Assembly (NCBI GenBank): GCA_041650255.1
Contig: JBAZLL010000002.1
Span: forward strand, 38,932-102,931
Direction of reading: 5' to 3'
DNA length: 64,000 bases
Origin: Candidatus Micrarchaeia archaeon
Lineage (GTDB): Archaea > Micrarchaeota > Micrarchaeia > Anstonellales > Anstonellaceae
The position numbers were made by a program, and so were the translations under genes. Numbering within the stretch: the stretch's first letter is position 1; every line of letters starts with the position of its first letter. A model generated the notes under the pieces. It worked only from the letters and a program-made list of their open reading frames with translations, had not been told where the DNA came from and searched no databases. This document shows, piece after piece, positions 4,924-48,386 of the stretch.

Positions 4924-6867
4924 CTACTCCACATTCCCTTTCTTCTCAACAATCTCCTTTAAGTGTGAAATAAATTCCTCTGCCTTCAAATTGTATTGCT
5001 TGCCGTTTCTCTCCCTTATCTGAAGCTCGCCGCCATCCTGCTCTTTCTTTCCAATCACGAGCATATATGGAATTTTCTGCAATTGCGCGTCCCTTATCTT
5101 CGCATTAATGGTTTCCGTCTTTTCATTGACAAAAACCCTCAATCCGTTCTCCTGTAATTTGTGTGCGAATATATTCGCAAAATCCAAATATTCGTCGGAC
5201 ACCGGAAGAAGCGCGACCTGCACCGGCGAAATCCAAATCGGGAATTTACCCGCATAATGCTCAATCAATATGCCCATGAATCTCTCCATTGAGCCGTAAA
5301 TCGCGCGATGAATCGCAACCGGAATATGGGATTGTCCGTCAGCCCCTTCATATTTTAGACCAAAGCGCATAGGCATCTGAAAGTCCAGCTGGCATGTGGA
5401 AAGCTGCCATATTCTTCCAATCGCATCCTTTACTTTAAAGTCAATTTTCGGACCATAAAATGCGCCATCTCCGGCGTTTATTTCATATTTCATGCCCACT
5501 TTGTCAAGTGCATTTCCAAGCGATTTTTCAGCCTTGTTCCAAGTGTCAATTTCGCCCATGAAACTTTGCGGGCGGGTTGAAAGCTCGGCAGTATATTCAA
5601 ATCCGAAAGTTTTGAGCACAACATCAATCAGCTCAAGCACGCCGATTACTTCCTGTTCAATTTGTTCCTGCGTGCAAAAGATGTGCGCATCATCCTGCGT
5701 AAATGCCCTTACTCTAAACATTCCGGAAAGAACGCCGGAAAGCTCGTGCCGATGCACAAGTCCGAACTCCGCCATTTTAATCGGCAGGTCCCGATAGCTT
5801 CGGGTGGAATTTGCAAATACGAGCATGTGCCCCGGGCAATTCATCGGCTTTACGCCGTAATCCTGCTCGTCAATTTTTGTGAAATACATATTGTCTTTGT
5901 AATGGTCCCAATGCCCCGATGTGTGCCAAATATTGCTGTTAACAATAATCGGGCTTTTTACCTCTACATATCCGCGCTTTTTGTGCTCCGCACGCAAAAA
6001 CGCCTCAAGCTCGTTTCTAATAATCGCCCCGTTTGGAAGCAGGAAAGGCATTCCGGGCGCAAGCTCACTAAACATTATGAGTCCGAGCTCCTTGCCGATT
6101 TTGCGATGGTCGCGTTTTTCGGACTCTTCAAGCCTTTTGAGATAATCGTCAAGTTCTTTTTTTGTGGCATAGGCAGTGCCATAGATTCTCTGCAACTGGT
6201 CGTTTTTGGCATCTCCTCTCCAATATGCACCAGCGACCTTCATCAGCTTGAACGCGCCTGCCTTTGCCGTAGATGGCAAATGCGGGCCGGAACACAAATC
6301 AAAAAATTCTTTTGCATCTTTCGGGCTTTTGGGAGTTTTTTCATTATAATAAATTGAAATTGCCTCTTCTTGTGGCAATGCGTTGATTACTTCTCTCTTG
6401 TACACATTGTCCGAATAAAGCTCAAGCGCTTTTTTCCTGTCAACCTCAACGCGCACAAATGGCTGGTCTTCTTCAACAATTTTCTGCATCTCATTTTCAA
6501 TCTTTATCATGTCGTCCGGAGTGAATGGCTGTTTTCTTGCAACGTCATAATAAAATCCTTCTTCAATAACCGGTCCGATAGTGAGTTTTGCATCCGAAAA
6601 AAGCCTTTGTATCGCCTGCGCCATAATGTGCGCGCTTGAATGTCTAACCACTTCAAGCCCTTCGGGAGTTTGCGGTTTTATCAAAATAAGTTTCGCGCCA
6701 TCGTGCAATTTTGCACTCAAATCAGCCATCTTGCCATCTATTTTCGCGGCAACAACTGCGCGTGCAAGTCCCGGACTTATTTTCATCGCCGCATCATGCG
6801 CGCTTGAGCCCGCACTCATCTCAAGCGGTTTGCCGTCCGGCAATATGATTTTGATACTCCCAGTCAT
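4924..6867 (-). CDS. thrS: Threonyl-tRNA synthetase, bacterial type (TGS + editing domain)
   Basis: TGS N-terminus, RHSSAH and DLCSGPH editing motifs, RDHRKIG, KPMNCPGH, FYGPKID, HRAIYGSMERF; likely start MTGSIK at 6867. Confidence 0.97.
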   Translation of the reverse strand: MTGSIKIILPDGKPLEMSAGSSAHDAAMKISPGLARAVVAAKIDGKMADLSAKLHDGAKLILIKPQTPEGLEVVRHSSAHIMAQAIQRLFSDAKLTIGPVIEEGFYYDVARKQPFTPDDMIKIENEMQKIVEEDQPFVRVEVDRKKALELYSDNVYKREVINALPQEEAISIYYNEKTPKSPKDAKEFFDLCSGPHLPSTAKAGAFKLMKVAGAYWRGDAKNDQLQRIYGTAYATKKELDDYLKRLEESEKRDHRKIGKELGLIMFSELAPGMPFLLPNGAIIRNELEAFLRAEHKKRGYVEVKSPIIVNSNIWHTSGHWDHYKDNMYFTKIDEQDYGVKPMNCPGHMLVFANSTRSYRDLPIKMAEFGLVHRHELSGVLSGMFRVRAFTQDDAHIFCTQEQIEQEVIGVLELIDVVLKTFGFEYTAELSTRPQSFMGEIDTWNKAEKSLGNALDKVGMKYEINAGDGAFYGPKIDFKVKDAIGRIWQLSTCQLDFQMPMRFGLKYEGADGQSHIPVAIHRAIYGSMERFMGILIEHYAGKFPIWISPVQVALLPVSDEYLDFANIFAHKLQENGLRVFVNEKTETINAKIRDAQLQKIPYMLVIGKKEQDGGELQIRERNGKQYNLKAEEFISHLKEIVEKKGNVE

Positions 6868-6899: not shown

Positions 6900-6938
6900 A
6901 GCCCTTTTCTTTCTTTTTGCGAAAAGAAAAAAAGGTCT
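6900..6938. repeat. Pyrimidine/purine palindrome (dispersed family copy)
   Basis: AGCCCTTTTCTTTCTTTTT-GCG-AAAAGAAAAAAAGGTCT; ends match the copy at 48277-48307 read on the minus strand. Confidence 0.65.
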
Positions 6939-39151: not shown

Positions 39152-39314
39152 GCCAACGTCGCATAACCTGGTAGTGCGTCAGTCTCGAAAGGCTTTTCTT
39201 TTCTCTCGCCAGAGAAAAGAAAACCCTGGAAAAGAAAAGAGAGGGATGAGCCTTCCTTTTTTCCGAGATAACTGATCCCTTACGGGATTGTAGGTTCAAA
39301 TCCTGCCGTTGGCG
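39152..39314 (+). tRNA. tRNA-Ser(CGA) with 80-nt intron (39190-39269) at 37/38
   Basis: Acceptor GCCAACG/CGTTGGC, anticodon arm TCAGT-CT-CGA-A...A-ACTGA, long variable arm, GGTTCAAATCC, G73; BHB with CTCG/CGAG helix and AAA/ATA bulges. Confidence 0.93.
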
Positions 39315-42610: not shown

Positions 42611-42716
42611 AACGCCCCTGTAGCTCCCCCTTTTTCTTTCTTAGAAAGAAAGAAAAAGGTAGGTTTCCAAAAAGAAAGAATACTAATGAAACTATATTCC
42701 AACGCCCCTGTAGCTC
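42611..42716 (+). repeat. 16-bp direct repeat of the tRNA-Thr 5' end flanking a 74-bp palindrome/mirror insert
   Basis: AACGCCCCTGTAGCTC at 42611 and 42701; 14-bp hairpin 42629-42659; purine mirror 42646-57 / 42669-80. Confidence 0.9.
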
Positions 42717-42775
42717 AGCGGTAGAGTGCTTGTTTCGTAAACAAGATGTCGCGGGTTCAAATCCCGTCGGGGGCT
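42704..42775 (+). tRNA. tRNA-Thr(CGT)
   Basis: GCCCCTG/CGGGGGC acceptor, CTTGT-TT-CGT-AA-ACAAG, GGTTCAAATCCC, U73. Confidence 0.95.
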
Positions 42776-48039: not shown

Positions 48040-48165
48040 CGGACCCGGTGAGATTTGAACTCACGACCTTTGTCTTGCTCCGTTTTTAATTAACTTTTTT
48101 CTATTTTCTAAAAAGAAAAAAGTCATTAGGAGGACACTGCTCTATCCAAGCTGAGCTACGGGCCC
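48040..48165 (-). tRNA. tRNA-Arg(CCT) with 51-nt intron (48076-48126) at 37/38
   Basis: GGGCCCG/CGGGTCC acceptor, GTGTC-CT-CCT-A...A-GACAA, GAGTTCAAATCTC; BHB with CTCC/GGAG helix. Confidence 0.93.
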
Positions 48166-48386
48166 GTGATAATAATATTGCAAATAGGGTATTTATATTC
48201 AAAACGCTTTCTTTTTGGGGTTACCCATATCCTCAACCGCCGCGCGGTTGGGGAGCTTGAAGCCGAAGGCTTCATGAGACCTTTTTCTTTTGAAAAGAAA
48301 AAGGGCTGGGGAGCTGAGCTACGGGCCCGTGATAATAATATTGCAAATAGGGTATTTATATTCAAAACGCTTTCTTTTTGGGGTTA
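48149..48386 (-). repeat. 75-bp perfect direct repeat (promoter + first 17 nt of tRNA-Arg) flanking an 88-bp triple-hairpin insert
   Basis: 48149-48223 identical to 48312-48386. Confidence 0.95.

Follow-up and report, generated by a model that had tools for sequence, protein, structure and literature searches.

Single strands of nucleic acid can fold back on themselves into three-stranded structures, and four classes of such intrastrand triplex motifs have been described (Holder et al. 2015, PMC4666352). Both the purine and the pyrimidine motif form in isolated DNA strands under physiological conditions, and the pyrimidine type forms in RNA as well. In the same study the G/C-rich motif of E. 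coli (BoxC, PIT or TMECO) marks rearrangement-prone loci, and matches to the A/T-rich motif are put down mostly to chance. From Archaea, Candidatus Micrarchaeum (ARMAN-2) is known for an epsilon2 splicing endonuclease of broad specificity and for numerous tRNA genes that are disrupted (PMC3239211). Here we analyse a short module within the intron of a tRNA-Ser(CGA) gene. The gene lies in a stretch of 64,000 nucleotides from Candidatus Micrarchaeia archaeon (assembly GCA_041650255.1, contig JBAZLL010000002.1), referred to below as the window, and coordinates are those of the window unless a contig is named. The module consists of a pyrimidine tract (Y1), its complementary purine tract (R1) and a second purine tract (R2) that is the mirror image of R1, together called a triad. 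What the initial annotation of the locus described as a triplex signature is, as far as sequence can tell, the code of a known intrastrand triplex motif.

Three-stranded pairing of this module is probably real, and the features discussed below make it likelier in DNA than in the intron RNA. We suggest, tentatively and with slightly less than even confidence, that the module is a repeat that codes for a triplex at the DNA level, is prone to rearrangement and linked to tRNA loci, and is harmless where it sits in a spliced intron.

The elements of the triad in the intron are listed here; the relatives named in the list carry homologous introns and are compared below.

39190-39192, + strand: AGG, which pairs with CCT (39225-39227) and extends hairpin 1 across a C.C mismatch (39193/39224), from the folds

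39194-39206, + strand: Y1, the pyrimidine arm TTTTCTTTTCTCT, 13 nt, from the sequence

39207-39210, + strand: loop of hairpin 1, CGCC, which is CGCA in the CG10 ortholog, from the sequence

39211-39223, + strand: R1, the purine arm AGAGAAAAGAAAA, perfect reverse complement of Y1, from the sequence

39224-39229, + strand: spacer CCCTGG, the same in CG10, CCCCGG in L022 and L047, and CCCTTCAGGG in L008, from sequence comparison

39230-39242, + strand: R2, AAAAGAAAAGAGA, exact 13-nt mirror of R1, candidate third strand and 5' arm of the predicted hairpin 2, from the sequence, the folds and the triad finder

39251-39264, + strand: Y2, CCTTCCTTTTTTCC (also given as CCUUCCUUUUUUCC), imperfect Watson-Crick partner of R2 in hairpin 2, from the folds

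The perfect hairpin of 39194-39206 with 39211-39223 and the 13-nt mirror at 39230-39242 over CCCTGG had been reported by the initial annotation, and both coordinates and letters are exact. Neither the Y1:R1 hairpin nor the R1/R2 mirror extends any further at 39194-39242. The three tracts, each 13 nt long and joined by loops of 4 and 6 nt, follow the base code of an intrastrand triplex with zero mismatches. The sense strand has the order Y-R-R, i.e., class II with a purine motif, and the complement the order Y-Y-R, i.e., class IV with a pyrimidine motif. In addition, 39211-39242 is a perfect homopurine mirror repeat with a short spacer, the sequence type required for H-DNA.

Comparison of orthologous introns reveals that the third tract changes together with the hairpin. 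Orthologs were gathered by scans for the conserved 5' exon and by look-ups of homologs of the triose-phosphate isomerase (TIM) gene that adjoins the tRNA-Ser(CGA) locus; the nearest relatives of this isomerase are 56-73% identical, and those with a source name are nearly all labelled Micrarchaeota. Micrarchaeota CG10_big_fil_rev_8_21_14_0_10_45_29 (CG10) has the same tRNA beside the same gene, with a homologous 72-nt intron that reads AGGC TTTTTCTTTCT CGCA AGAAAGAAAAA CCCTGG AAAAAGAAAGA GGCG... and in which Y1:R1 is perfect and R2 an exact mirror. The tracts are T5CT3CT / AGA3GA5 / A5GA3GA in CG10 and T4CT4CTCT / AGAGA4GA4 / A4GA4GAGA in the window, i.e., run lengths of 5,3,1 versus 4,4,1,1. 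A third run-length pattern is found in the partial introns of contigs L008-L010 and L043, ...GAAAGAAAA CCCTTCAGGG AAAAGAAAGAAG..., where the tracts ...GA3GA4 / A4GA3G... are mirrored over 9 comparable nucleotides and Y1 is absent, the contig breaking in the hairpin. Contig L170 begins at the spacer, with R1 outside the contig, and its hairpin 2 is a perfect 9-bp R2:Y2 helix. Contig L035 begins in the 3' exon of tRNA-Ser(CGA).

A hand tally of five copies, including the tRNA-Thr and the 9-nt tRNA-Arg copies described below, gives 54 positions that can be compared, and R2 mirrors R1 at all 54; in four of the columns A and G alternate from copy to copy. The mirror is thus perfect and Y2 imperfect, although for Y2 an ordinary pairing constraint would be expected. 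The three-way covariation that the initial annotation named as a check on its proposal is therefore positive, CG10 and the partial L008 intron being mirrored despite different run lengths. Furthermore, hairpin 1 is fully Watson-Crick in all type-A copies (about 49 bp in four copies), without a single G.U pair, so that both DNA strands should fold equally. The initial annotation's remark that mirror symmetry does not arise by duplication or inversion is upheld, as no copying process makes a reversed, non-complemented copy. It follows that the mirror is likely maintained by selection, acting either on the copies or on whatever spreads them. We infer that the triplex code as a whole is kept by selection, and a three-strand code under selection would in turn imply that some three-stranded pairing forms.

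Chance or low complexity was considered as a source of the triad and is ruled out by Markov simulations and a mirror census. Homopurine tracts that reach 10 nt or more number 232 in the 64-kb window, but only seven mirror repeats combine arms of this minimum length with a spacer no longer than 12 nt. The longest of these mirrors, at 13 nt, and the next, at 12 nt, each adjoin one of the two longest perfect pyrimidine/purine hairpins of the window. Searched for complete triads (a Y tract, its loop, R, the spacer and the mirrored R), the window yields only two, the one in the intron and a copy at a tRNA-Thr gene, and on about 170 kb of related DPANN loci the same finder returns copies of the CG10 intron triad only. 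In simulations of the window (300 of order 3 and 300 of order 5) there are no triads of at least 9 nt, the maximum being 8 nt.

The triad is not specific to the intron. The features outside the tRNA-Ser gene are as follows.

42611-42626, + strand: 16-nt duplicate of the tRNA-Thr 5' end (AAC and tRNA positions 1-13), directly before the second triad

42629-42680, + strand: second triad, non-intronic, CC-TTTTTCTTTCTT / AGA / AAGAAAGAAAAA-GG / TAGGTTT / CC-AAAAAGAAAGAA, from the hairpin and mirror census and the triad finder

48280-48304, - strand: third, weaker copy upstream of tRNA-Arg(CCT), an 11-bp hairpin CCTTTTTCTTT / TCA / AAAGAAAAAGG, from the hairpin census

The tRNA-Thr triad has a 14-bp perfect hairpin and a 12-nt exact mirror, with loops of 3 and 11 nt, and its tracts, T5CT3CTT / AAGA3GA5 / A5GA3GAA, are near-identical to those of the CG10 intron. 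Its part at 42646-42680 is a second homopurine mirror repeat of the H-DNA sequence type. The other copy of the duplicated 16 nt, at an offset of 90 nt, is 42701-42716, the start of the intact tRNA-Thr(CGT) gene at 42704-42775. The copy at tRNA-Arg has a 9-nt mirror, AAAAAGAAA, 63 nt downstream, inside a 10-nt tract AAAAAGAAAG at 48207-48216. Around it, at 48149-48386 on the minus strand, lies a 75-nt tandem duplication of the upstream region (with the TATA-like ATATAAATA) and positions 1-17 of tRNA-Arg(CCT), and the 88-nt insert between the two duplicates contains a T/A-rich hairpin and two GC-rich hairpins of the UUCG type. In contig L047 a module homologous to its own tRNA-Ser intron sits directly 3' of tRNA-Thr. 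One sequence family thus occurs as a tRNA-gene intron, as a 5' flank and as a 3' flank, always in sense orientation in the Micrarchaeota copies. Of the triplex signature claimed by the initial annotation, the sequence code holds, as it is real, covaries and recurs; its assignment to the intron does not, given the copies by tRNA-Thr and tRNA-Arg and the flanking modules in relatives. Signs of rearrangement around the copies are the 16-nt and 75-nt duplications of tRNA 5' ends, the intron missing in contig L026 and the varying TIM/tRNA orientation among relatives.

Several other observations concern these loci and their neighbourhood. The stretch 42611-42716, with the triad and a likely promoter region between the duplicates, resembles a miniature integration or duplication scar. 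The tRNA-Arg(CCT) gene itself (48040-48165, minus strand) has a 51-nt intron at 37/38 with a pyrimidine/purine hairpin CUUUUUUCUUUUU AGA AAAAUAGAAAAAAG that has one mismatch and no mirror tract. A T-rich/A-rich hairpin, CCCTTTTCTTTCTTTT TGCG AAAAGAAAAAAAAGG, also with one mismatch and no mirror tract, lies at 6903-6935 in the intergenic region between two minus-strand open reading frames and may be a bidirectional terminator-like element. Downstream of tRNA-Ser(CGA) in L003 (3400-3600, minus strand), L022, L026, L015, L023, L033 and L035, the tRNA's final ~13 nt (CCTGCCGYYGGCG) recur two to four times, separated by spacers of 50-80 nt that are rich in small GC hairpins; these arrays look like serial att-like scars. 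L003 also carries a 26-nt 5' fragment about 190 nt upstream. In a close relative (L038 1487-2692 and L039 1493-2635), a gene for an IS605-type TnpB (OrfB_IS605, Cas12f-like) lies about 700 nt downstream of the isomerase, so relatives of single-strand-DNA transposons are present in the neighbourhood.

The module's host is an ordinary bulge-helix-bulge (BHB) intron, located at position 37/38 of a Micrarchaeota tRNA-Ser(CGA) gene, with predicted splicing. The gene has three parts.

39152-39189, + strand: 5' exon of tRNA-Ser(CGA), with the acceptor, D arm, anticodon stem, anticodon CGA and A37, from Rfam and ARAGORN, the same exon being intronless in L026

39190-39269, + strand: BHB intron, 80 nt, canonical position 37/38, from ARAGORN and the constrained fold

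39270-39314, + strand: 3' exon of tRNA-Ser(CGA), with the anticodon stem, long variable arm, T arm and acceptor, from Rfam and ARAGORN

The Rfam tRNA model RF00005 matches 39152-39314 with 38.6 bits and an 83-nt insertion in the anticodon loop, and ARAGORN places the 80-nt intron after position 37 when introns are allowed; with its default settings it makes no tRNA-Ser(CGA) call at the locus. In the Rfam scan of the locus, the tRNA is the sole real match, the others being spurious and miRNA-like (E ~0.7, far under the gathering scores). A cloverleaf-constrained fold gives a canonical BHB, i.e., the anticodon stem, a bulge AU/A, the central 4-bp helix CUCG:CGAG (39184-39187 with 39264-39267) and a bulge AA/A; in the CG10 ortholog the helix has 3 bp only, a relaxed form. 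The metagenome contig L026 (2090-2172) carries identical tRNA-Ser(CGA) exons without the intron. This fixes the intron boundaries, apart from a one-A ambiguity, and implies that the intron is polymorphic among very close relatives through a recent gain or loss. The intron had been placed at 39190-39269 by the initial annotation, and Rfam, the intron mode of ARAGORN and the intronless contig all agree with it.

Other tRNA-Ser(CGA) genes from DPANN archaea have unrelated two-hairpin introns or none. Contig L045 (108-247) has an unrelated 57-nt intron in a tRNA-Ser(CGA) gene that ARAGORN mislabels, beside an isomerase with 66% identity; its hairpin loop contains CUGA and GAUGAUGU and is C/D-box-like. 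In the tRNA-Ser(CGA) genes of L012, L021, L024 and L034, labelled Woesearchaeota, there is a second long insertion in the T loop (GGTTCAAA...GTCCGGGC) besides the anticodon-loop intron. Contig L006 (57-211; ERZ27293414, a CG10-like strain) has the tRNA-Ser body and intron of CG10 with G at position 36, i.e., an anticodon CGG, and is labelled tRNA-Pro by ARAGORN; this reflects an assembly error or else a serine tRNA that would read a proline codon. The Logan contigs of the L008 species (L008-L010, L043 and L044) all share a single starting base, which lies within the intron hairpin. The perfect 30-nt palindrome thus appears to break k-mer assemblies, and such introns would be under-represented in assemblies.

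In the pre-tRNA, the intron is most likely a three-way junction of two hairpins behind the BHB and not a triplex, as modelled by the cloverleaf-constrained fold. Hairpin 1 consists of AGG:CCU, the C.C mismatch and the 13-bp Y1:R1 stem, and hairpin 2 of R2 paired imperfectly with Y2. AGG:CCU, as found in the window and CG10, is replaced by GGG:CCC in L022 and L047, a covarying pair. For hairpin 2 the predicted stability does not exceed that of shuffled sequence (z -0.8 for the window). Other roles for these tracts were considered and rejected. Pairing of Y1 with R2 would give about 11 bp with GG and R2 in the window; by hand analysis, CG10 would need a C.A mismatch or several G.U pairs for it, and the mirror is perfect everywhere. 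Y2 as the true Hoogsteen strand, with R2 as its antisense, fits the required sequence at only ~7 of 13 positions in a hand comparison. A pseudoknot of the hairpin 1 loop with downstream sequence finds no complementarity in the window or in CG10. Finally, a C/D box small RNA in the intron is not supported, since GAUGAG in the loop of hairpin 2 of the window is GUUUU in CG10, i.e., the boxes are not conserved.

The combination of hairpin and mirror also occurs in unrelated DNA. Viral contigs were scanned for hairpins of the same sequence type, which gave 55 loci and 112 strand tests. A mirror tract of 9-14 nt, located 5-14 nt after the hairpin, was found in 8 of the 112 tests. The background rate for A-rich purine tracts, taken from about 1 Mb of viral DNA at unrelated loci that a less specific pattern had returned, is 0.64%, which gives a binomial p of ~7e-7. 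Mirror repeats of the same purine sequence without a hairpin are found at least 118 times in viral contigs, a hairpin being present in 0 of the 118 listed. As such hairpin-free mirrors are common, the enrichment appears specific to the combination of hairpin and mirror. Clean triads are L186 6514-6556 and L192 283-307 (both on IMG/VR contig 3300029620_000416 and sharing the upstream motif AACAGAGATTTT...ATCCG), L219 433-490, L183 2110-2183 and L173 ~6780-6849. The phage-like contigs with triads have a G+C content of 32-57% and carry them in both orientations relative to genes, one copy lying in a 5' untranslated region behind a sigma70-like promoter. None of the phage copies matches an Rfam family.

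How, then, could the triad have come to be kept? The carrier would be DNA, either single-stranded during replication or transcription, or supercoiled duplex (as H-DNA, or as a cruciform with a third strand), and the T.A-T-rich pyrimidine motif on the template strand would be physically the strongest form. The module would spread among tRNA loci in the way of the bacterial intrastrand-triplex repeats (PIT, BoxC and TM elements), and it could persist in tRNA-Ser since it is cut out of the RNA by the splicing endonuclease. We rank this DNA explanation first because the sense RNA would have to use the purine motif, because other RNA pairings compete with it, because the tRNA-Thr copy lies upstream of the expected promoter and because hairpin 1 is free of G.U pairs. 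Several points weigh against it. A-rich purine-motif triplexes are weak in DNA, and the pyrimidine-motif form requires 2-3 protonated cytosines. All Micrarchaeota copies are oriented alike with respect to the tRNA gene, which may hint at a function in the transcript. The link with rearrangement is confounded, since tRNA genes are integration hot spots anyway. There are three type-A orthologous introns, one of them without Y1, and as all of them are related, the independent covariation events are few, about 3 to 4. In more distant homologs (L022, L047 and the tRNA-Thr(CGU) intron of CG10), which share the frame GGG-C-U5...A5-C-CCC-GG-A4-5 with a GC-rich hairpin top, the mirror is kept only in the A-run part.

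The last observation would also suit an intron without any triplex, i.e., a simple intron of two hairpins that derives from reused tRNA-flank sequence, with a T-rich/A-rich terminator-like hairpin and a promoter-like A-rich tract, where the mirror is a by-product of low-complexity A/G tracts and of the replacement of whole modules between copies. The abundance of homopurine tracts in the window (232) and of hairpin-free mirrors in viral contigs (at least 118) speaks for such an origin, R2 of the tRNA-Thr copy overlaps the expected promoter region of the tRNA, and the L047 module directly after a tRNA is terminator-like. Copies may also be exchanged as units, because the tracts of the CG10 intron are near-identical to those of the tRNA-Thr copy in the window. 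This explanation must however account for the lack of any triad of at least 9 nt in tract-preserving simulations, for the ~13-fold enrichment of the triad beside such hairpins in unrelated phage DNA, and for a mirror that is perfect wherever both tracts are known, in at least three run-length patterns, next to an imperfect Y2. Since DNA copying does not make reversed, non-complemented copies, selection would have to filter the variants in any case. We hold this account to be unlikely, if a serious competitor.

The three-way code could alternatively act in RNA, as the initial annotation had proposed for the spliced intron. R2 would then occupy the major groove of hairpin 1, running antiparallel to R1 and forming 13 purine-motif triples (A.A-U and G.G-C) after transcription or after excision and circularisation, and the product would be a compact, stable RNA. 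The mirror code kept in three orthologous introns is consistent with this, as are the Y-R-R order of all Micrarchaeota copies in the tRNA sense direction, the same order in the phage copy in a 5' untranslated region, and the weakness of hairpin 2 (z -0.1 to -1.3), from which R2 could be released. However, the intron RNA would be a poor carrier for the triplex, because both the covarying spacer pairing CCU:AGG and the R2:Y2 pairing (R2 has a partner in every ortholog) clash with the mirror register. Moreover, the purine motif is reported not to form with RNA strands (PMC4666352, citing Semerad & Maher 1994); for purine-motif triplexes involving RNA, the evidence is described as conflicting in PMC7583470. 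The tRNA-Thr copy, lying upstream of the likely promoter, may not be transcribed, and the gene orientation at L186 would place the opposite strand in RNA. We regard a triplex of the sense intron as improbable, and the same low probability is given to an RNA-level triple helix stated more broadly, whether an 11-13-triple purine-motif helix in the excised, possibly circular intron or a MALAT1-like U.A-U helix in an antisense transcript. It is also conceivable that the triplex is coupled to transcription, the displaced non-template strand Y1-R1-R2 folding on itself or the nascent RNA binding the duplex, so that an R-loop is stabilised and the polymerase paused or insulated, as proposed for mirror repeats of the GAA type. 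In every Micrarchaeota copy the non-template strand carries the purine mirror, copies have a truncated tRNA 5' fragment on one side and the real gene on the other, a setting in which insulation would be plausible, and the T-rich arm resembles the oligo-T termination signals of archaea. Nevertheless, a pause or terminator would be costly in an essential tRNA gene, and the consistent orientation is seen in three independent contexts only, with a chance probability of ~0.25. This is the least probable of the explanations, marginally below an RNA triplex.

If the DNA-level explanation of the triad is true, a spliced-out intron shelters a structure-forming DNA element inside an essential gene. Triplexes are usually proposed from sequence alone, while here the third tract changes with the hairpin across genomes and separate copies, which is comparative evidence of the kind used for RNA helices and rare for triplexes. 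If confirmed, the module would be a natural and easily synthesised test case of about 50 nt for DNA versus RNA and for which strand folds, and intrastrand-triplex repeats would extend from bacteria to DPANN archaea, linked to the turnover of tRNA introns and fragments. If the triplex formed at the RNA level, it would be the first long RNA triplex of natural origin from Archaea, with three-way covariation in support.

Among known systems, the triple helices of MALAT1 and of the PAN ENE (PMC7583470) share order and code with the antisense strand of the module, i.e., Hoogsteen-Y, loop, Watson-Crick-Y, loop and purine, which would give 10 U.A-U and 3 C+.G-C triples. However, this matching strand lies opposite to the tRNA. 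The sense RNA has one U-rich and two purine strands, and as Y1 is its sole U-rich tract that matches the code, the two U-rich strands that clamp an A-rich one in the ENE/MALAT1 type are not found there. With H-DNA the module shares a perfect purine mirror of 13+13 nt, R1-CCCTGG-R2, and a 6-bp spacer, as required according to PMC11667243 and PMC4666352. H-DNA can do without an additional complementary Y1 on the same strand; that the module has one suggests a fold of the single strand, or additionally a cruciform.

The intron has the canonical 37/38 position, the 3-4-3 BHB motif and the intronless allele of archaeal BHB introns (PMC3239211), and one family is common to tRNA-Ser(CGA) and tRNA-Thr(CGU), as in reported intron transposition. 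It differs in its length of 80 nt, in the three-way junction that replaces the outer helix and in the triplex-coded core. The arrangement of tRNA 5' fragment, foreign sequence and intact gene is the layout of the Caldiarchaeum tRNA-Thr model of tRNA disruption (PMC3293823), which the gain or loss of the intron among close relatives also resembles; here the intervening sequence is 74-88 nt, there is no recombinase gene, and the duplicated pieces are 16 and 75 nt. The bacterial PIT, BoxC and TMECO repeats (Hoyne et al. 2000; PMC4666352) differ from the module in that those well studied are G/C-rich and the module A/T-rich, and in its DPANN host, its link with tRNA genes, the one copy in a tRNA intron and its support by covariation of the third tract instead of biophysics. 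They likewise have Y, R and a reverse-Hoogsteen R on one strand (class II) and class IV on the complement. Short loops, genomic repetition and rearrangement-prone loci are common to both, and the stem found here, with 11-14 nt, falls at the upper end of the 8-15 nt that PMC4666352 takes as meaningful.

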